The translations under genes and the position numbers were made by a program. Under the pieces are notes generated by a model. It did not search any database. It was not told the origin of the DNA and worked only from the letters and a program-made list of their open reading frames with translations. Below, piece after piece: positions 6,302 to 64,000 of a stretch of DNA of 64,000 nt. How positions within the stretch are numbered: position 1 is the stretch's first letter; each line of letters starts with the position of its first letter. Source of the DNA: Salinispira sp. (GTDB taxonomy: Bacteria > Spirochaetota > Spirochaetia > DSM-27196 > Salinispiraceae); the NCBI GenBank assembly GCA_965226555.1, contig CBDDDG010000018.1:1-64000 (forward strand), written 5' to 3'.

Positions 6302-8796
6302 CTACTCATTATCCCAGACCTCGCTGATTTTGTCTTTGATTTTTTGTTCCATAATTTCAATGAGGTATGTATTGCCGTGTATGATTGCTTCTTCTTTTTC
6401 AATTTCTGCCACGATGTGCTTTTGGATTTTGAGTGACGGGAGGGGGATTTTGTATCTTCAATAGAATTTTTGAGTTTAAATTATTTATAGGTTGCTCCAC
6501 TAATTTATTTCCTCAAAAAAACGTTAAATTTAGAACTTTTTAGTTGATAGAACATATATTGAGGGATAGTTCTGTCCTTTTTGATTTATCCTTATGACAC
6601 TAGCATAAAACCACCAAAATAAAAATTTGTATTGTCTTTAATATATGCTACCTGGACCAATATGGCTTTTGCTACCGCTAGCAAGGCATATAAAAATATC
6701 TCCTTTGTTTAGCTTTTTTGCTTTCACTTAGTTTCAACGGTCTGATGAAATAATTTTAATATCATGCAAATTTAAAGAACCATTCAAATTCCATATTATT
6801 AGCCCTCAAAACTTTTAAGCCATTTTCTTTCTACCTCATCGTTTTTTGAATAAGTAACTCCCCGATTTAACTCACAAACATCTCCCAATTCCACCATCTC
6901 CCAATCGGGATTAACGGCAACTCTGCGGTTTCCAGTTATCTACGACCTGCTTTGCTCCGTCTATAATTTTTTGATAGCCGTCAATCTCCTCAGCAATTTT
7001 CTCTCTGAATTTCGAGCGGGGGGAGGGGGATTTTGATGCATAGAAAGGTTGGATATTGTTTAATCTGTGGAACTGTAGCACCTGTACCTGAAATTCAGTA
7101 GAGTTTAAATTTGAACTCTTTAATAAACGCAAAAAGATAATTCTTTACTTAATTTTGTATCTGTCTGGTTTTGTAACCATGAGCATGATTCCAGTAATCC
7201 AAGATTGTACCTGTTACAGTAAAAGATGTTTTTTAACTGCTCACCACATGTTAGCACCCTCTACAAGCCTATTAGCAACTTCTGAATTCTTCGTCAAAAA
7301 GTTATATCTTATCAAAAAAACCAATAACACCATTTGCACCAAAAACTTTGTATATTCTCCCAAATCCCTATGAGATTGTTTTAGAGTAATCGTTTTCTCT
7401 GGTTGTCTAAAATCTCACAAACATCTCCCAACTCCACCATCGGATATTTCGCATTGCTATAATCTTCTCCCTCACGATACCGGTCGGCGGTAAGGGTGTA
7501 ATCGCCATTTTCAGCAATTTTGTCTTTTGTGACCCACAGCGCCATATCACTCTGTACTTTTTTGCCCTGCTGCCAATTCTGCAAAATGTTCAGGGCCTGC
7601 GGCAGATCGTTTTTATCGGTTGCCCGGCGCTGCGCTCCCAAATCGAAACCATCATTATCAATTCGCACAAACAAAATCTCATCACTCTGTTTTGCCAGCA
7701 GTTTATCTATGAACAACACGGAAGTTTTCACGCCGGAATACGGATTAAAGACACCGCTCGGCAGCGATGCCACCGCATAGAGCCCCCACTGCTCAATGAG
7801 ATATGCGCGAAGCGTTTTATATGCCGTGCTTGTTTGAAAAATAATGCCTTCGGGAACAATGATGCCGGCGCGCCCGCTGGTAGTGAGGTGTTCGGCAATA
7901 TAATCGACAAACAGCACCTCAGAGCGCTTGGCATGAACGGCAAAGCGCGGGTGGGGGTGAATACCGCCCCGCGGCGTCATAAATGGCGGATTAGCCAGAA
8001 TAACCTGATAATCTTCATTCCAGCGCGCCTCGCTGGTGAGGGTGTCGTAGTCAAAAATTTGCGGGCTGCGGATGTTGTGCAGAAACATATTGATGCGCGA
8101 CAAGCGCGTCATGCCCGGGTCTATTTCATAGCCATGCACATTGCCCGACAATGTACTCCTCTCGGAGGGAGACAGTACATCGCCCGGGCTTTTCTGTTTA
8201 TTGCGCGCTAAAATATGATTATAGGCAGAAATGAGAAAACCGGCAGTGCCGCAGGCGGGGTCGAGCACGCGCTCATGTTTTTGCGGGTTAACAACAGCGA
8301 CTATGAAATTGATAATGTGGCGGGGAGTGCGGAACTGCCCTGCCTTGCCCTGTGTGCTCATAATGGAAAGCAGATATTCGTATCCGTTGCCGAGGTCTTC
8401 GCTGCTCGTATAGGGCAGATTATCTATTTCCCGCAAAAAGAGCGTTAAGGTGCGGGCATCCTGAAAGGACAAAAACGCGCCCTGAAACATGGAGCGGAAG
8501 ACTTTCGGCAACTCCGCGGACTGTCCGAGGGCAGCAATGGCTTTGGTGTACAGTTTGCGCCGTTCTGCGCTGCCGAGAGTGGTTGCGAGGAGTGCGCGCC
8601 ATGAGAACTGTGCCAATTCGCCGACAAAAAAGCTCGGGTTGCCGCCCTCTTCTTCCGAAATGCGGTCGCGGTCATCCATAAATTTATACAGCAACGCGGT
8701 GGTTATTTGCTCCACCTGCCCCTTGGGGTCAGGCATCTGCCCCACTAATATATCGCGTGCCGCGTCAATGCTTCTTCTGGTGTCGGCGTTTAACAT
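6302..8796 (-). pseudogene. hsdM: Type I RM HsdM-HsdS fusion; M part intact, both TRDs frameshifted
   Basis: GQFRTP, DPACGTAGFL and NPPF, running into MVELGDVCE (about 7440). That motif repeats at about 6897, and the frame ends LIEIMEQKIKDKISEVWDNE* at 6302. Confidence 0.8.
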
Positions 8797-8952: not shown

Positions 8953-9183
8953 TCATTGCCCTGCGGATGCCGCAGATCCGTTTAATTCACGTCCCGTAAG
9001 TTCACGCACCCGTTCCGGTGAAAGTTCCGTAGCAGCAACCACATCGGACTCCTCTATTCCGAGCCGGATCATATTACGAGCCGTCTTTTCAATACCTTTC
9101 TCCATTCCCTGCGCAAGACCTTCAATTCGGCCCTTCGCAATGCCTTCTCTGACGAAGGCGTTGGTAATATTATATGTCCGCAT
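8953..9183 (-). CDS. Putative intragenic small Rpn protein (RpnS), 76 aa
   Basis: Internal SD GGAGGAGA (9191-9198) precedes an in-frame ATG at 9183. Confidence 0.6.
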   Translation of the reverse strand: MRTYNITNAFVREGIAKGRIEGLAQGMEKGIEKTARNMIRLGIEESDVVAATELSPERVRELTGRELNGSAASAGQ

Positions 9184-9945
9184 ACTGTTTTCTCCTCCAA
9201 GGTACAGTTCCCTGTCAATTTTCTCAAACTGTTCATACAGTTTTGGATCTAGATCTTTCAGATAACCCAGCACACTCTCTGCCAGATCAGTAAAGTCTTG
9301 TGATGACAAACCGTTCAGAAGCTGCGCAATCTCCTTCAGCCCCTCAGCATCCATCTCATTATCTCGCATTATATACCACAACGCAGTCGATGTATATCGT
9401 TTTCCATCGAAACGCCATGCCAACTGCTTTTTGTCCATTCGCCTCAGATCGCGCACAATGTACGATACTCTCGCCCTGACATCTACCGTGCCTTCAGTCA
9501 TGGATTCGGAAGCAGCATTTCCATGAGAACTGTAAAATGAGCGCGGGAGGTTCCATTCCTTTTTTCCATGGTAGAGCAGAAGTATATAGATAGCATCATT
9601 TTCATTGTACACATTGCTGTTTCTGAGGGCATATTGATAATTATCGATTTGAGTGAGCGCATGTTTGTGCTGGTAGCTTTTGTGCTCAATAATAAAAAGG
9701 GACTTCCGGTCGGGGTCTGACAGGGAGGGGGCGCTGACAACGAGACCGCAGTGAAGGTTCTTTTTTCCTGCAATGTAGCTGGGGTTTTCAATACGAATTT
9801 TGCCCAAGTCCAGCTTGGCAAGCGTTGTAGCCGTACAGAACAGCCGCAGCAGGTCGGGAATCAGCCGGGGGGTTCTGTAGTAGGCGATCTTGAAGGCTAT
9901 GTCGTGGATGTTGCCTGTGCTGTGGGATGATTTTTTCATAAACAT
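8953..9945 (-). CDS. Rpn/YhgA-family PD-(D/E)XK nuclease (rpn copy 1)
   Basis: HDIAFK, FIIEHKS and LLYHG motifs, EG/KG repeats and an ARNM..G HTH tail; SD AGGAGG upstream. Confidence 0.85.
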   Translation of the reverse strand: MFMKKSSHSTGNIHDIAFKIAYYRTPRLIPDLLRLFCTATTLAKLDLGKIRIENPSYIAGKKNLHCGLVVSAPSLSDPDRKSLFIIEHKSYQHKHALTQIDNYQYALRNSNVYNENDAIYILLLYHGKKEWNLPRSFYSSHGNAASESMTEGTVDVRARVSYIVRDLRRMDKKQLAWRFDGKRYTSTALWYIMRDNEMDAEGLKEIAQLLNGLSSQDFTDLAESVLGYLKDLDPKLYEQFEKIDRELYLGGENSMRTYNITNAFVREGIAKGRIEGLAQGMEKGIEKTARNMIRLGIEESDVVAATELSPERVRELTGRELNGSAASAGQ

Positions 9946-16009: not shown

Positions 16010-16232
16010 CTCCCTGTGATTAACGGTTAGCAATGCGCATAACTTTATCAATGCAAAAATTTCTCTTGGTTTTTATATGAGAAACCTTTGCACATCATCG
16101 GGGATAATGGTATTTTGAAGAAAATTCACACAGAGAGCTGGGAATGAGCAATCGGGTTGTATTGCGCGCTGTCCGGCGCTGAAACGCTTCGATAGCCTGT
16201 ATGAACTGATCAATTGGAAGGAAATTGGGGAG

Positions 16233-16886
16233 ATGCTCTGTGCTATCAACAACAAATCGATGGGCGCGAAAGGATATCATCCGGTTATGATGTTCAAAGT
16301 GCTGTTGCTGCAATCTTGGCAGAATCTCAGCGATGAAGGCATGGAAAATGCTCTTGCCTGCGACTTGGCATACAAGCGTTTTGTGGGGATCAATGTTCTC
16401 GATGATACTCCCGATCATTCCACGATATGGCGGTTTCGGGAACAACTGACCCGTAAGAATATTCTCAGCGCGCTCTTGGACACGGTAAATGCGCAGTTGG
16501 ACACGCAGGATTGTGAAGTGCACAGGGGCGCAGTCAGCATAATTGATGCGAGTGTGATACAGGCTTCGCGGCATCGGAAGAAAAAAAATGACGCAGGAGA
16601 ATCGACACAGGATCCTGAAGCGGCCTACGCGAGTAAGAAGGGAGGCGATGGAACGGTACGAACAACCTACGGTTTCAAGATACACGTGACGGTAAATGAG
16701 ACGGTGGAGCGGTTTTTTGGTCTGAGCAAACTCCATTGCGGCGCAAGAAAGGCGCGGTATATGGGAGTTCAGAGGAATCAGAGTCGGTTTATGTGTATGG
16801 CGATTATGTATAATCTGAAACAGATGATCGGCATGAAACGGCGAATGGGGAACATGGCGCCGGAAAACTCTGCGGTTGCGGCATAA
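16233..16886 (+). pseudogene. IS5 transposase with three in-frame deletions
   Basis: Near-identical to 62320-63336 but lacks the SD/start and the YADAAY catalytic segment. Confidence 0.9.
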
Positions 16887-16968
16887 CAACAGGATAGCTG
16901 TGCCCTTATGGCGGTACTGCTGCCGGAAATGAGGGAAATACTGAAAAAAAGAATGAATTTTAGAGTTT

Positions 16969-18220
16969 TGGGATATTAAGGTTTGAACAGACCCCACTTT
17001 GACCTATTATGCGATCATTTCTTCCGAGTGCCAAGCCCTCCATCGCTCAAGCGTCGGCCGTGTGAGCCGTTGCTCCATTATGATCGGCTTGAGCCGGAGA
17101 ATATCACTATCCACATCGGTATTCCGCTGCCTCAAAAGATCCAGCGGAGTCCCTTTGCGGTAGGTGTTGAACCGCCGGTAATTGAAATCTATCTGATACT
17201 CCTCGGCTTCCTTAAGAAACTCATTGAGCTTTGGATTCATCACCTGACTGTAGAACTCATCCTCAATGAGCCGGTGCGAGGACTCGACAGAACTGTTCCA
17301 TGTGCAATGCCCGGGCGGAATACGCCGATACTCGACACCCGCCTGTATGAGCGCCTGCTCAAACCCCGATGTTCGGGTTTTGCTCAGATGTCGAACGGTG
17401 AACTCTGCCCCGTTATCGGTCTGAACCGTTATGTCCTTGGCAAGGTCTCCGTCATGATTCCGCAGGTGCTCCAGCAGGTACTCGGCGAACAAGGTTGTTA
17501 CCATACTGCTCTTCTCATTGGCAAAGGCGTACCACAGAGCCCCTGTCGCCCGATCCCGGGCAGTTATCTGGTACTTCGGAACGTCTAAACACTTCTGAGA
17601 AAACCGCATAGCGGGAATGTCCGTCAGATACTTGATATCAATCTGAATGCACTCGCCGAACTTCATCCTGTCGGTTACCTCCCGCAAATCTCTCTTGGGC
17701 CGCGCCTTCGGCTTCTTTGTTTTCTGCGCCCCTATCTGCTTTAGCGTCTTGATAATCGTCGGCAGGCTGTACTTCCCGCCAACTTCCGCCTTCAACTGCT
17801 TTTGCACCTGCGTTCCAATGATTTTGTTGTGATTCCGATTCTTGGTCTGGACAAGACTCTCGAGATGACACCGGTGCCCGAATTTCATCTTCATCGGATG
17901 ATTGGTCGTGCCCCGCTTTTTGTCTTCAAGCCCCTCGCCGGATTCAAAGCGCCGAACCCACCGCCGCACCGTGTTGCGCGACACCTCGAACTCCCGAGCA
18001 GCCGCCTTGATCGAATGCTCCTGGGCATACCGAACCATCCGCAACCGCCAATCATACATCGAAGCCGCCTGATACTTCCGAGACTTGAGATGATACTGAG
18101 AATATGTGATACTACTGTTCACTGTTTCCCTCCTTTTATGTTTTATACAACCCCCAGTGTATACGAATAACCTTCGTTTTACACTGGGGAGGAGGGGTCT
18201 GTCCAAAGGTTTATATCCCA
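16969..18220 (-). mobile_element. IS481-family element with 15-bp TSD
   Basis: TG...CA ends; imperfect TIRs TGGGATATTAAGGTTTGAACAGACCCC / TGGGATATAAACCTTTGGACAGACCCC; TGAATTTTAGAGTTT duplicated at 16954-16968 and 18221-18235. Confidence 0.85.
17007..18122 (-). CDS. IS481-family DDE transposase
   Basis: HTH (AAAREFEVSRNTVRRWVRRF), QIDIK, QTDNGAEF and VESSH; GTG 18122 follows SD AGGAGG. Confidence 0.9.
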   Translation of the reverse strand: MNSSITYSQYHLKSRKYQAASMYDWRLRMVRYAQEHSIKAAAREFEVSRNTVRRWVRRFESGEGLEDKKRGTTNHPMKMKFGHRCHLESLVQTKNRNHNKIIGTQVQKQLKAEVGGKYSLPTIIKTLKQIGAQKTKKPKARPKRDLREVTDRMKFGECIQIDIKYLTDIPAMRFSQKCLDVPKYQITARDRATGALWYAFANEKSSMVTTLFAEYLLEHLRNHDGDLAKDITVQTDNGAEFTVRHLSKTRTSGFEQALIQAGVEYRRIPPGHCTWNSSVESSHRLIEDEFYSQVMNPKLNEFLKEAEEYQIDFNYRRFNTYRKGTPLDLLRQRNTDVDSDILRLKPIIMEQRLTRPTLERWRAWHSEEMIA

Positions 18221-18371
18221 TGAATTTTAGAGTTTTTGGTATACAAAGGGTGGAGAATAGTGTATTCTGAATCTTAAGAACCGATGAATAATTTTTTCTG
18301 CGTGGAAAAAAGACTACCGGCAGATATAATGGAGTTATTCAAAAGTTTCTATTAGCCAAGGAGGCAAAATA

Positions 18372-20012: not shown

Positions 20013-20607
20013 TTTCATAGCCCATAGCCCGCAGTAACTATTGAAACGCGGCAATTCAACTCAGGCAGGCGCGGGGCTGGTCGGCGCTCCGCGCCTGCTC
20101 GCCCATGCGTCCGGGAAAATCCGTGCCTGCCTTTTTTCGATAGCTCGCCCATCCGGCTGTTGCTGGTTGGGGAGGCCGCGTCTCCTAGGCTGGTCGACGC
20201 TCCGCGCCCATGCGTCCGGGCTGCCTTTTTTCGATTGATCGCCATGCGTCTGGATCAGGCTAATATCTCATGTGGAATGCTGTCTTTGTGCTTAGCATTC
20301 ACCATTCATATTTTACCCGTCTATATGGTATGAGCGGAAAATATATCGGTATGGTACGCGCTGGAAATATGTTTTCGGGAATGCTCAGATATTCCGGGAT
20401 TTCATATACTCCTACTTCAACAAAGGCCTCGCGCGGAGCATTGTTCCGGGGAGCATGCGTCAATACACCCTATAATACAGGGCGAATTCAATCATACGCG
20501 CCCCCCATTCCCGACTCCCCGAAAAAAATTCACAAATTTTGCAAAATTCTTTCCAAAAACATAGTCAAGAATGACATTTTACCCGTCACAGATGTAGGAG
20601 GAAGAAT

Positions 20608-21502
20608 ATGAAAAAATCATCCCAGAGCACAGGCCATATCCACGACATAGCCTTCAAGATCGCCTACTACAGAACCCACCGTATGATTCCCGACCTGCTA
20701 CGGCTGTTCTGTGAGGATACAACGCTTGCCAAGCTGGATCTGGACAAAATCCGCATTGAAACCCCCAGCTACATTGCAGGAAAAAAGAACCTTCACTGCG
20801 ATCTCGTTGTCAGTGCCCCCTTCTTGTCAGACCCCGACCGAAAAGCTCTTTTTATTATTGAAAATTTTGCTCCGCAAAATTTTCCAATAAGGATTCTCTC
20901 ATCTATACTCTTGATTCTCTCACGGTATAGAAAGTTTTGCCTTGGAAAATTGTGCAAGCACAATTTCCAGTAGCAAAACTTTTGTATTGAACACAAAAGC
21001 TACCAGCACAAACATGCTCTCACACAGATCGATGACTATCAATATGCCCTCAGAAACAGCAATGTGTACAATGAAAATGATGCTATCTATATACTTCTGC
21101 TCTACCACGGAAAAGGTGAATGGAACCTCCCCCTCACATTTTACAGTTCTCATGGAAATCCAGCTTCCGAATCCATGATCGAAGGCACGGTAGATGTCAG
21201 GGCGAGAGTGTCGTACATTGTGCGTGATCTTTGTAGAATGAAAAAGAAGCAGTTGGCATTGCGTTCCGATGAAAAACGATATACATCGACTGCGTTGTGG
21301 TATATAATGCGAGATAATAACAAAGGGCCGGGCTGAGGGCATTGAGAAAGGTATTCTGAAAGGTCGCGCGGAGGGGCATATTGAGGAACGGAGAAAAAAC
21401 GCTCGCAGTATGTTTTTGGAAGGGTTGTCGACCGAGGCTGTTCAGAGAATTACCGGGCTGAGCGATGAGGAAATGCGGACAGTGCGGAACGGATCGCATT
21501 AA
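20608..21502 (+). pseudogene. Rpn copy 2: MITE insertion, internal deletion, chimeric C-terminus
   Basis: N-terminal part matches rpn1. A 129-bp insert sits in the IIEHKS motif. The out-of-frame tail GRAEG...RNGSH* matches rpn3. Confidence 0.85.
20860..20983. mobile_element. Composite palindromic MITE, copy A
   Basis: 25-bp palindrome plus spacer plus 52-bp palindrome; absent from paralog rpn1; TATTGAA appears at both junctions. Confidence 0.85.
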
Positions 21503-60359: not shown

Positions 60360-60872
60360 TTATCGCTGTGTGAAAAGTACCAGTATGGTAATCATAACCG
60401 GGAATATGAGAGCAAGTAACCAGAATATGTGCCGAATTGATTTCGTTATATCTTCCCGCAGTACCTGAATATTTTCCTTTGTTTCTTCCCGCAGTACCTG
60501 AATATTTTCCTTTGTTTCTTCCCGCAGCGCCTGAATATCGTGCTTTGTTTCTTCCCGCAAGGCCTGCATATCGTGTCGCAGTACCTGCGCATCGGTTTGC
60601 AGTTTTTCCGTATCTTTTTTTAGGAGCTGAATATCCTGCTTCATATCTTTTTTTAGGAGCTGAATATCCTGCTTCATATCTTTTTTTAGGAGCTGAATAT
60701 CGTTTTTTAGGAGCTGAATATCTTGCTTCATATCGTTTTTTAGGAGCTGAATATCTTGCTTCGTTACGAGTTCGTCGTTTTGCTGCGCAATGACCTTTGC
60801 CAGCACATCCGACTGCTGAAGAGAGAAACCATTTTTCTGCAATGTTTTTGATGCGAGTAGTGTGTCAATCAT
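60360..60872 (-). CDS. DUF1640/Bdr-like coiled-coil repeat membrane protein
   Basis: LQKNGFSLQQSD, LVTKQDI, 11-aa repeats (KQDIQLLKKDM, KENIQVLREET) and a C-terminal TM. Confidence 0.8.
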   Translation of the reverse strand: MIDTLLASKTLQKNGFSLQQSDVLAKVIAQQNDELVTKQDIQLLKNDMKQDIQLLKNDIQLLKKDMKQDIQLLKKDMKQDIQLLKKDTEKLQTDAQVLRHDMQALREETKHDIQALREETKENIQVLREETKENIQVLREDITKSIRHIFWLLALIFPVMITILVLFTQR

Positions 60873-60878
60873 GGTCAT

Positions 60879-60907
60879 AATATACGAAAATTACGGGGCA
60901 TTGTCAA
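60879..60907 (-). promoter_or_regulatory. sigma70 promoter, probably leaderless
   Basis: TTGACA-17-TATATT, then 6 nt to ATG 60872. Confidence 0.65.
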
Positions 60908-60927
60908 GAGTTTCGGGCATGGGTGGG

Positions 60928-60976
60928 TGGGAAATAAACCTTTGAGCTGCCCCCGCTTTGACCTATTATGCGTTCA
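60928..60976. mobile_element. Solo IS481-type end remnant
   Basis: Matches 16969-17017 (shared CTTTGACCTATTATGCG). Confidence 0.7.
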
Positions 60977-61015
60977 TGCTCAGAGCGGGAGATATGTCAA
61001 TTTACAGAAACGTTC

Positions 61016-61170
61016 TTATATGCTGATTCTGAGTTCATGTATCTTTTCAGGGGAAAGTTTTATCGCTGCAACCACCTCGGACTCTTTCATTCCAAGCCGG
61101 AGCATATTACAAGCTGCTTCCGCAAGTCTTCATCGCCTGTCTTACTGACTTTCCGCATAATATAGCACAG
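61016..61170 (-). pseudogene. Degenerate rpn1-type C-terminal cassette
   Basis: EAACNMLRLGMKESEVVAAIKLSPEKIHELRISI* versus rpn1 KTARNMIRLGIEESDVVAATELSPERVREL. Confidence 0.7.
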
Positions 61171-61310
61171 GGCTCCCCCTGTCAACACAACCCCGTCTGA
61201 CCCGACGGGTTACATATGAATGGTGAATGATAAAATGAGAAAGTTTTTGAAAAAGTTTCTATTATTTTGGGATATTACTGTTGGACCTGACCCCGGCGCG
61301 GGGATCGCTG

Positions 61311-61487
61311 CTACGCTTCACCGTTTTTCTGCAATGTTCGAATTTCATCCCCGCTGAGATTGGTGATATCATGAATAATGTCCATCGATATGCCCTTCCT
61401 GAGCATTTTGAGTACCTGCTCAAGTCCCTGCTCAAGTCCCTGCTCAACACCTGCCCGCCATGGGTCATCTAAAAGATCTACCAACAT
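61311..61487 (-). CDS. Stand-alone RpnS-like small protein (58 aa)
   Basis: SD GAGGAGGT, 7 nt, ATG; MLVDLLDDPWRAGVEQGLEQGLEQVLKMLRKGISMDIIHDITNLSGDEIRTLQKNGEA*; below the ORF-track cutoff. Confidence 0.75.
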   Translation of the reverse strand: MLVDLLDDPWRAGVEQGLEQGLEQVLKMLRKGISMDIIHDITNLSGDEIRTLQKNGEA

Positions 61488-61539
61488 ACGTTTTACCTCC
61501 TCAGGATGTTCCTGCCGGCTGCAGGCCGAGCAACGTCAA

Positions 61540-61920
61540 TTAATGCGATCCGTTCCGCAATGCCCGCATTTCCTCATCGCTCAGCCCGGTAATCCTCTGA
61601 ACAGCCTCTGTCGACAACCCTTCCAAAAACATACTGCGGGCGTTTTTTCTCCGCTCCTCAATATGCCCCTCCGCGCGACCTGCCTGTAGCCCCTTTTGAA
61701 GTCCTTCTTCACGACCTGTCTGCAGTCCTTCCTGTCGACCTGTTTGCAATCCTTCTTCACGACCTGTTCGCAGTCCTGTCTGCAGTCCTTCCTGCCGACC
61801 TGTCTGCAGTCCTTCTTCACGACCTGTTCGCAGTCCTTCCTGTCGTCCTGTCTGAAGTCCTTCCTGCCGACCCATTTCCGCAATGCGCGCTTTGAATGTT
61901 TCCGCATTCATTCTGAACAT
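61540..61920 (-). CDS. Intragenic RpnS of copy 3 (126 aa), still intact
   Basis: Internal SD AAGGAGGT (61928-61935), 7 nt, ATG; GRQEGLQT repeats plus HTH. Confidence 0.65.
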   Translation of the reverse strand: MFRMNAETFKARIAEMGRQEGLQTGRQEGLRTGREEGLQTGRQEGLQTGLRTGREEGLQTGRQEGLQTGREEGLQKGLQAGRAEGHIEERRKNARSMFLEGLSTEAVQRITGLSDEEMRALRNGSH

Positions 61921-62203
61921 TTTTGCTACCTCCTTACCTCTCGGTTCTTTTGTTCTTTCTAATCTGTTCATTAACGTATCTAAATCTATAACAATTCCGA
62001 ACATCGAATCTACCACGCCGACAAATTCCTCTATCAGCTCCAGCGATTCCTCATTCAGCATTTCTGCTATCGCTTTCTCCACCTTCTGAATGTCCCAATC
62101 CGTATTCAACAGATTTTTCGAGTACAGATCAAGGTACATAACAGCCGCAAACATTCTTCCCCGCTGCTGCAACTGCTCCGCAGAATAATCGTTCTCACTA
62201 ATA

Positions 62204-63543
62204 GAAACCTTTGCACATCATCGGGAATAATGGTATTCTGAGGAAAATTCACACAGAGAGCTGGGAATGAGCAATCGGGTTGTATTGCGCGCTGTCCGGC
62301 GCTGAAACAGGAGAACGCAATGGGAAATAATTGGAAAGAACATCATGGATCGCTGATCAATCAGGGTATTCAGGAAAGTAAAGCGCTGAAACGCTTTGAT
62401 AGCCTGTATGAACTGATCAATTGGAAGGAAATTGGGGAGATGCTCTGTGCTATCAACAACAAATCGATGGGAGCGAAAGGATATCATCCGGTTATGATGT
62501 TCAAAGTGCTGTTGCTGCAATCGTGGCAGAATCTCAGCGATGAAGGCATGGAAAATGCTCTTGCCTGCGACTTGGCATACAAGCGTTTTGTGGGGCTCAA
62601 TGTTCTCGATGATACTCCCGATCATTCCACGATATGGCGGTTTCGGGAACAACTGACCCGTAAGAATATTCTTAGTGCGCTCTTGGACACGGTGAATGCG
62701 CAGTTGGACAAGCAGGATTGTGAAGTGCACCGGGGCGCAGTCAGCATAATTGATGCGAGTGTCATACAGGCTTCGCGGCATCGGAAGAAAAAAAATGACG
62801 CAGGAGAATCGACACAGGATCCTGAAGCGGCCTACGCGAGTAAGAGGGGAGGCGATGGAACGGTACGAACAACCTACGGTTTCAAGATACACGTGACGGT
62901 AAATGAGAAGGGACGGGCGAAGAAACTGCTGGTGACTGCGGCTAATATTCATGACAGCAAACTATTTGGCGAATTGATTATGGGAAATGAGACGGTGGTG
63001 TACGCGGATGCCGCGTACCGGAGTAAAGCGATTGCTGCGATGCTTGAGGAGATGGGCATAGAGAATCAGATACATGAGCGGGCGTATCGGAACACACCGT
63101 TAACCGATGAGCAGAAGCAGGCGAATTACGGGCGGTCGCGCGTAAGGAATACGGTGGAGCGGTTTTTTGGTCTGAGCAAACTCCATTGCGGCGCAAGAAA
63201 GGCGCGGTATATGGGAGTTCAGAGGAATCAGAGTCGGTTTATGTGTATGGCGATTATGTATAATCTGAAACAGATGATCGGCATGAAACGGCGAATGGGG
63301 AACATGGCGCCGGAAAACTCTGCGGTTGCGGCATAACAACAGGATAGCTGTGCCCTTATGGCGGTACTGCTGCCGGAAATGAGGGAAATACTGAAAAAAG
63401 ATGAAAAAAAGAACGAATATAGCGCGTATCGCGCCGAAAAAAGATGGAGGATGCTGAAGAGAATAACGTGAAAAACGATGAATAATTTTTTCTGCGTGGA
63501 AAAAAGACTACCGGCAGATATAATGGAGTTATTCAAAAGTTTC
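62204..63543 (+). mobile_element. IS5-family element copy 2, full length (1340 bp)
   Basis: TIRs GAAACCTTTGCA / GAAACTTTTGAA; perfect TAATA TSD at 62199-62203 and 63544-63548. Confidence 0.95.
62320..63336 (+). CDS. IS5-family transposase
   Basis: PDHSTIWRFR, IIDASVI, YGFKIH, YADAAY and VERFFG. Confidence 0.95.
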   Translation: MGNNWKEHHGSLINQGIQESKALKRFDSLYELINWKEIGEMLCAINNKSMGAKGYHPVMMFKVLLLQSWQNLSDEGMENALACDLAYKRFVGLNVLDDTPDHSTIWRFREQLTRKNILSALLDTVNAQLDKQDCEVHRGAVSIIDASVIQASRHRKKKNDAGESTQDPEAAYASKRGGDGTVRTTYGFKIHVTVNEKGRAKKLLVTAANIHDSKLFGELIMGNETVVYADAAYRSKAIAAMLEEMGIENQIHERAYRNTPLTDEQKQANYGRSRVRNTVERFFGLSKLHCGARKARYMGVQRNQSRFMCMAIMYNLKQMIGMKRRMGNMAPENSAVAA

Positions 63544-63558
63544 TAATAAGATCGTACC

Positions 63559-63681
63559 GAAAATTTTGCTCCGCAAAATTTTCCAATAAGATTCTCCCAT
63601 CTATATATTTGATTCTCTCAAGATATAGAAAGTTTTGCTACTGGAAATTGTGCTTGCACAATTTTCCAAGGCAAAACTTTG
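63559..63681. mobile_element. Composite palindromic MITE, copy B (core inverted relative to copy A)
   Basis: Colinear with 20860-20983, except 63629-63680 is the exact reverse complement of 20931-20982. Confidence 0.9.
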
Positions 63682-64000
63682 TTAGGGAAAGGGAGCAAGA
63701 TACTGCGGGAATTCCCGCGTGTTCTGCTCTCTGACATTCCCGGGCACCTTCCATTTTCTCGTGCCATTATAGAACACAATGGGCAGAAATACCAACTCGC
63801 AGTCATCGGGAATTTCGCCAGTGCGGTGAATGTTCCGATAGAGCAGATTCGTATACTCCGACATGCGGAGGGGCATGTCTTTGTCCACTCCAGATTGATG
63901 CTCAAGGAGCACATAGATAGCAACATCTCCCGTGTGATCCCGACTTCTGATTTTGCAGACAATGTCGGCCATTCGTGTTTTCGCATGGTCGATAAAAAAG

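Follow-up and report, generated by a model that had tools for sequence, protein, structure and literature searches.

An rpn tail of another nuclease clade stranded behind a split rpn gene in Salinispira, probably left there by recombination

Introduction

The closest described relatives of the locus reported here are the RpnL/RpnS gene-within-gene systems (COG5464, PF04754, TIGR01784), with which it shares a YhgA-like PD-(D/E)XK nuclease, an internal SD and start codon, an internal promoter-like site and a repeat tract whose length changes in steps of four residues (Zhong et al., 2023, PMC10400941). RpnAS is described as a three-helix unit (PDB 7TH0), and three helices are predicted for the tail here; in the present organism the toxin, antitoxin and anti-phage roles are putative. 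In Escherichia coli, stand-alone rpnS genes lie downstream of rpnC, rpnE, rpnF and rpnP1 (rpnCSs, ypaA = rpnESs, rpnFSs and rpnP1Ss), RpnESs is made in the cell, and RpnCSs and RpnESs each cluster with the tail of the gene that they follow (PMC10400941). The same paper describes rpnS copies lost by deletion or fused to the upstream nuclease and rpn arrays produced by tandem duplication, and it reports that a single extra repeat abolishes neutralisation in RpnC; a commentary expects this dependence on repeat length to prevent inhibition in trans (PMC10400984).

An earlier reading of the present DNA, made without database searches (the sequence-only reading), compared the locus to the orphan modules behind CDI and Rhs toxins. 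Displacement of rhs C-terminal ends was reportedly described by Jackson et al. in 2009. The comparison with orphan cdiA-CT/cdiI and rhs-CT/rhsI modules (Poole et al., 2011, PMC3150448) is sound insofar as a 3' end is stranded behind a full-length relative and the same end is found fused elsewhere. It fails in other respects: the CDI/Rhs orphans are toxin-plus-immunity pairs in multi-module arrays belonging to exported toxins, whereas the Rpn remnants have no nuclease or toxic domain, would be intracellular if active, are nearly always single and are often broken. Nor does this locus have a series of intact modules of the CDI/Rhs kind, one intact remnant being followed by a fragment. Because the Rpn tail is both a putative antitoxin and part of the toxin gene, an orphan tail carries no toxic domain.

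The locus resembles the E. coli stand-alone genes in having a small separate gene, equal to the Rpn C-terminal domain and with four-residue repeats, directly behind an rpn gene. The E. coli genes derive from their own upstream tail, whereas the gene here comes from another clade, with an H-type start and a type B HTH behind a T-clade gene with a type A HTH (the nuclease clades T, P, K, H, G and W and the tail types A, B and C are our own labels, assigned by motif). Exchange of HTHs between clades, seen here, is absent from the accessible text of PMC10400941, in which the largest copy number quoted is 26, against 150 nuclease-linked tails in the present genome. No description of cross-clade Rpn tails was found in the literature covered (mainly open-access texts, with the rows of Dataset S1 set aside), in which RpnS is the subject only of the paper by Zhong et al., a preprint and the commentary. 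The sequence-only reading considered the arrangement undescribed for Rpn; this is true of the tail from another clade and not of the downstream stand-alone rpnS, its loss or its fusion, all of which are in PMC10400941. The stand-alone rpnS arrangement is thus already known, and the mixing of tails between Rpn subfamilies is the sole new part.

Results

A split rpn3 gene and what lies behind it

The window is the whole stretch analysed, positions 1-64000 of contig C18 of the genome (G000); higher C18 numbers lie just beyond it. From upstream to downstream on the minus strand, the locus contains the following features.

63682-64000, minus strand: 5' part of rpn3, a T-clade YhgA-like nuclease domain; the gene start lies beyond the window and the part is severed by the insertion
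63766-63795, minus strand: promoter-like site TTGGTA-18-TATAAT, upstream of the insertion; candidate internal promoter of the T-clade RpnS
62204-63682, no strand: 1.48-kb insertion splitting rpn3, made up of a hairpin repeat (about 63545-63682) and an IS5-family element
62320-63336, plus strand: IS5-family transposase within the insertion, with DUF772 and DDE_Tnp_1 domains
61540-62202, minus strand: 3' part of rpn3, enclosing the RpnS frame 61920-61540
61515-61539, minus strand: short GC-rich repeat after the type A stop, at the junction with H-clade sequence
61488-61514, minus strand: final nine codons of an H-clade nuclease coding sequence, carrying the H-clade internal SD (61502-61495)
61311-61487, minus strand: 58-aa stand-alone RpnS of apparent H-clade origin with a type B HTH; private linker deletion and private F-to-L change
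61204-61299, minus strand: trailer and H-clade 5' leader of the next rpn unit; matched about a hundred times in the genome by blastn
61117-61203, minus strand: 87-bp internal fragment of a G-clade rpn gene, 98.9% identical to C18 89047-89133 and C10 235428-235514
61016-61120, minus strand: type C (rpn1-like) HTH remnant, decayed, with RpnS start, SD and repeats missing

The 1.48-kb insertion in rpn3, on which the sequence-only reading was silent, is missing from the sister copy of the gene, and its other copies in the genome are 96-99% identical. The severed 5' part matches PF04754 (Transposase_31; E 3.7e-11, 43.4 bits against a Pfam cut-off of 21), as rpn1 also does above the cut-off, and is 97% identical to the intact sister (C18 66029-65715). 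A site of the TTGGTA-18-TATAAT type lies 402 nt 5' of the RpnS start in all 32 full T-clade frames, and the one at 63766-63795 is likely, by this placement, to be an internal promoter for the T-clade RpnS; the insertion cuts it off from the 58-aa ORF, and a promoter motif scan found no minus-strand promoter-like site between 62300 and that ORF. The 3' part of rpn3 keeps a 126-aa RpnS frame (ATG at 61920, stop at 61540) with four-residue repeats and a type A HTH, preceded by an SD at about 61935-61928; the same SD region precedes 49 of the 50 T-clade RpnS starts. A gap of 52 bp separates the stop of this tail from the start of the 58-aa ORF. The rpn3 tail with its own SD, and 52 bp on a 58-aa gene with SD, EQG repeats and a different HTH, are all in the sequence as the earlier reading had described them.

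Two other rpn genes lie in the window: rpn1 (8953-9945, minus strand), which is intact, belongs to the P clade, ends in a C tail and is followed directly by a gene for an N6 DNA methylase (7381-8796, minus strand), and rpn2 (20608-21502, plus strand), a P-clade pseudogene broken by a hairpin repeat and by a deletion that removed the RpnS start. At 16095-18221 the IS5 element found in rpn3 recurs in part, together with another transposase-like ORF, the end sequence of which is seen again at 60928-60977. A gene at 60360-60878 (minus strand) encodes a 172-aa coiled-coil repeat protein with a hydrophobic C-terminus and a CCDC90-like match below the cut-off; it has its own TTGACA-17-TATATT site and seven further matches in the genome, and we take the protein to be reminiscent of the Borrelia Bdr proteins.

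The 58-aa ORF

The 58-aa ORF lies directly downstream of an rpn gene and is equal to an Rpn C-terminal domain, with an SD (GAGGAGGT) 7 nt before its ATG, EQG repeats and an HTH unlike that of the rpn3 tail. The sequence-only reading called it unannotated, and it is in fact already present in a public collection as a called protein (P0002), though without a name. Its SD is identical to that of 10 of the 14 intact H-type RpnS, and the ORF and the 27 bases ahead of its ATG, SD included, match H-clade coding sequence, in the case of the 27 bases that of a full-length H gene on contig C1. Since rpn3 has a T start and an A HTH and the ORF an H start and a B HTH, it was not derived from its neighbour's RpnS; by sequence, it is the RpnS part, still intact, from the 3' end of an rpn gene of the H clade. 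Among the 26 intact B tails it alone lacks the conserved linker before the HTH, through an in-frame deletion between short direct repeats, and carries an L in place of the F shared by the remaining 25; its helix length, too, is matched by no further B tail of the genome.

The C-terminus of TIGR01784 matches the 58-aa protein below the cut-off (E 0.001), and the protein is modelled as three helices (residues 9-30, 35-42 and 46-56; mean pLDDT 69). RpnAS (7TH0) is a weak match to this model, at rank 4 in Foldseek (E 2.1) and at rank 36 in a VIA comparison (Z 4.4, rmsd 5.6, 46 residues aligned), among many HTH domains of which those of resolvase type score equally well or better. A sequence search of the PDB with the protein returned designed helical repeats only, with no RpnAS among them; matches to FliH and Yae1_N were discarded because both fall on the repeat tract. 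Modelled as a complex with the RpnL of an intact H-clade gene (304 aa, no alignment), the 58-aa protein scored 0.00 in both of two runs; the controls did not fold, and the score speaks neither for nor against an interaction. In a search of proteins of 31-102 aa the ORF had nine matches, four of them on other contigs, and similar proteins of 57-71 aa are called in a related assembly. Weak matches (at best E 7e-6) turned up in 7 of 30 other genomes, all outside the genus, so that these relatives gave no orthologous locus and no between-strain dN/dS. At least one weak locus is among the 596 candidate stretches listed in a metagenome scan.

The third piece is a doubly deleted unit

Behind the 58-aa ORF the earlier reading placed a decayed rpn1-type tail ending at 61016 and preceded by TTGACA-17-TATTAT at 61185-61157, and both are there. 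The C-type remnant is 77-78% identical to three other C tails and directly abuts the G-clade fragment. The third piece is unable to encode an RpnS because the RpnS start and the repeats are gone; it is a doubly deleted rpn unit and not a cassette. Of the proposed tandem array of tail cassettes, then, two pieces have a start and a frame and the third has neither an RpnS start nor repeats.

The TTGACA site (11 of 12 consensus matches) falls inside the 87-bp G-clade piece and recurs in all 11 other copies of that piece, and a site of this type stands 210 nt before the RpnS start in all five full G genes; from this position it is likely the internal RpnS promoter of the G clade. As a promoter evolved for the cassette it was rejected, being internal G-clade coding sequence and present in 11 of 11 other copies. 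The sequence-only reading also noted a 26-bp homology to DNA upstream of rpn2. The match to 20296-20321 is real (24 of 26 bases), and the idea of a specific link to rpn2 was dropped: the leader with the segment (61229-61204) maps to positions -81 to -24 of an H gene and is an ordinary H-clade leader, common throughout the genome, with 15 matches to the segment at two mismatches or fewer and 62 at four or fewer. At C14:144204-144714 such a leader is joined at the same point of the G fragment and is followed by an intact RpnS, making a nuclease-free promoter-plus-RpnS unit.

A genome crowded with rpn genes

With profiles built from the genome, we counted 179 Rpn HTH tails and 184 nuclease-domain matches, split genes counting twice. 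Tails of type A (rpn3-like) number 138, those of type B (like the 58-aa ORF) 37 and those of type C (rpn1-like) 4, and the nucleases fall into six clades. PF04754 matched all 70 scored of 164 candidates in this genome, compared with 0-6 per genome in 30 related genomes. There are about 150 nuclease-linked rpn units in 2.98 Mb; the RpnS frame survives in 144 of the 150 nuclease-linked tails and the full frame in 81, and among these 81 "full-length" frames about 4 have doubtful N-termini. The genome includes two intact H genes and two intact P/B genes. Read from sequence, an SD precedes the internal start in all six clades, with a promoter-like site further upstream. Type A tails vary in length solely by four-residue steps (50 of 50 in T, 54 of 54 in P, 11 of 11 in G), and 157 of the 160 intact RpnS frames are distinct.

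RpnS parts have been kept far more than nuclease parts (about 30 would be expected to be broken, and 6 are). Of the 69 broken nuclease parts, 53 contain a hairpin repeat, which is present in 2 of the 81 full ones and absent from every RpnS part. This repeat occurs at 388 merged loci in the genome, including 63545-63682 and 20862-20980 in the window, and several copies stand directly before an RpnS SD. Decayed 5' fragments of H-clade rpn genes, mostly the first 119-167 bases, occur at 65 sites besides window positions 20330-20456 and precede P genes (32) and T genes (16). From this distribution it looks as if H genes had been the landing site of the rpn expansion. A genome of the same family (G004, C1:3403677-3409310) has a tandem rpn array with varying repeat numbers, one nuclease type, three HTH variants and truncated tail-only copies. 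The survey of relatives that had been proposed for small ORFs behind rpn genes brought no clear cross-clade doublet in 12 loci from other genomes scanned for tails.

Tails exchanged between clades

The tails of P nucleases are 56 A, 11 B and 2 C, and those of G nucleases 5 A and 1 C. B and C tails are absent from all 50 T-clade genes, although 10 of the 15 remnants have a T gene in front of them. The earlier proposal to look for rpn genes with matching tails led to five P-fused copies from which the HTH of the 58-aa ORF differs at 1 of 96 bases (99% identity), two of them full-length P/B genes on C10; its nearest H-linked copy is 85% identical. This HTH variant survives only in remnants and P fusions, and at C14 49753 an HTH is 97% identical to a remnant. 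Judged by these sequences, tails are exchanged between Rpn clades, and a transfer may run from a remnant to a P gene or back. The earlier picture of distinct tails in a polymorphic Rpn family is supported to the extent that the 58-aa gene is an RpnS-type tail from a clade other than that of the gene before it, and that P nucleases carry A, B and C tails. Ratios of dN/dS are 0.57-0.78 for HTHs and 0.17-0.39 for nuclease cores, as pairwise counts among paralogues.

Junctions at repeats

The genome has 20 H-type start sites. Five have an unbroken H coding sequence upstream; in five the GC-rich repeat is set into H coding sequence at exactly the point of the rpn3/ORF junction; at one the repeat has other DNA upstream; and nine immediately follow an A tail, which has this repeat in its trailer. 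Upstream of the unit in the window is an H 5' fragment (C18 64778-64545), and such fragments precede 8 of 10 T genes with a B remnant and 11 of 40 without one (Fisher p 0.004, the copies not being independent). The unit (61204-64928) is a tandem copy, 90-93% identical, of C18 64710-66943, in which the T gene is intact and the remnant has 67 aa. Junctions at the locus fall at repeats and microhomologies.

We compared four of the seven sequencing runs listed, among which no RNA run appeared; all four consist of contigs, and depth over the repeats sums the paralogues. Over the unique piece 60856-61146 a contig (record 4) of run X1, possibly the source sample, is identical to the window. A joint from the rpn3 repeats to the 58-aa ORF is not among the joints listed for the contig runs (the best 15 of 20), which says nothing on whether it is absent. 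On 61013-61443, runs X4 and X5 have contigs with a variant of the C-type tail, and one X4 contig joins this variant to EQG-type repeats, a hint of a fuller gene in a relative.

Most stranded tails are broken

A B tail stands behind an A tail in 15 cases, with start and frame kept in 5, three of which have one junction in common, and broken in 10; three further A-to-H junctions, all broken, were missed by the HTH search. The RpnS is kept in 63 of 69 units with a broken nuclease and in 5 of the 15 downstream B tails (p 6e-6), in a comparison in which copies are not independent, the 63 of 69 is inflated because 14 nuclease matches without a tail of their own were omitted from the 150 units, and some remnants were born broken because they begin at arbitrary breakpoints. 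Among four distinct intact remnants dN/dS is 0.77, close to the 0.85 of nuclease-linked B tails, and so there is no sign of relaxed selection. The sequence-only reading had named a neutrally decaying leftover of a deleted rpn as the outcome that would speak against it; a remnant of an H-clade gene, of a kind mostly broken, is what the ORF appears to be, and the dN/dS values give no sign of neutral decay.

Discussion

We favor the view that the tails behind rpn3 are leftovers of recombination, occasionally recaptured, rather than a maintained immunity array, and give it a probability of about 0.65. Recombination at the short GC-rich repeat would have exchanged the central part of an H gene for another rpn gene and left both H ends in place, stranding the H-gene 3' end, with its own ribosome-binding site, behind the rpn3 tail; the unit would then have been duplicated in tandem, and the IS5 insertion would have entered the copy in the window. 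Remnants of this sort may be by-products, most of them decaying. Now and then a crossover in the four-residue repeat tract could recapture one by fusing its HTH to the upstream nuclease, and since the long and the short protein share the tail, such a swap would yield a new nuclease and its matching putative antitoxin at once. We infer the order of these events, as we do expression and antitoxin activity at the locus. The maintained immunity or donor array of the sequence-only reading does not sit well with 10 of 15 downstream tails being broken, a linker deletion found nowhere else, and junctions at repeats and microhomologies. As a counterpoint to decay, the 58-aa ORF is open, with a strong SD and an in-frame deletion, and of the 9 H starts that immediately follow an A tail 5 have stayed intact, which selection could explain too.

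The ORF might instead be a maintained orphan antitoxin, translated from the rpn3 tail transcript and neutralising an RpnL, of the H clade or with a B tail, that is encoded at another locus or brought in by transfer. An open frame, an SD equal to that of most intact H-type RpnS (10 of 14) and a predicted three-helix fold as described for RpnAS would suit such a role, and the two intact H and two intact P/B genes offer possible targets; RpnESs is synthesised in E. coli (PMC10400941), proteins of similar size are called in the related assembly, and RpnS parts outlast nucleases here, so extra RpnS may be favored. The same E. coli work found neutralisation in RpnC abolished by one extra repeat, and the helix length and missing linker of the 58-aa ORF are unique among B tails; moreover, it combines an H-type start with an HTH that occurs on P nucleases only, most remnants like it are broken, and the IS5 element has cut off its likely promoter. 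We regard a maintained antitoxin as unlikely. Still less probable is a dedicated donor array, in which downstream tails would form a reservoir to be swapped onto the upstream nuclease and change its specificity, as with orphan CDI/Rhs modules. The mixing of tail types across nuclease clades, the confinement of the ORF's HTH variant to remnants and P fusions, the 97% match at C14 49753, the higher dN/dS of HTHs than of nuclease cores and the diversity of RpnS frames (157 of 160 distinct) would all accord with it. Yet no T gene has acquired a B or C tail despite standing before most remnants, 14 of 15 remnants have no further tail of another type behind them, this locus alone having C behind B, and an in-frame crossover would need a repeat tract, which is gone from the third piece. 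Nor do P/B genes have an H 5' fragment before them more often (4 of 11) than do P/A genes that lack a remnant (19 of 52), which gives no support to an origin of P/B genes from nested units. That near-identical rpn repeats were collapsed or mis-joined in assembly is very improbable: repeats abound in the region, none of the contig pieces listed covers it from end to end and the contamination estimate is 6.67%, but the same junction appears on several contigs with distinct sequences, the 58-aa ORF has private changes, and the unique piece at 60856-61146 is identical in the X1 contig.

Taken alone, the locus is most likely recombination debris of a kind already described, and the greater value lies in its setting: a 3-Mb genome with about 80 full-length and about 70 broken rpn genes, in which tails are mixed across clades and RpnS nearly always outlasts the nuclease. 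More speculatively, and with the odds well against it, Rpn here may be a combinatorial polymorphic system of six nuclease clades, a four-step repeat tract and swappable HTH tails, with 157 different RpnS, in which stranded tails would be both spare antitoxins and donors and each swap would give a self-protected new pair, possibly with a new DNA target. The genome is a ready panel for asking whether RpnL-RpnS specificity lies in the start helix, the repeat number or the HTH, a question raised by PMC10400941 and PMC10400984, and it is equally suited to another from those texts, whether RpnS acts in trans between copies.
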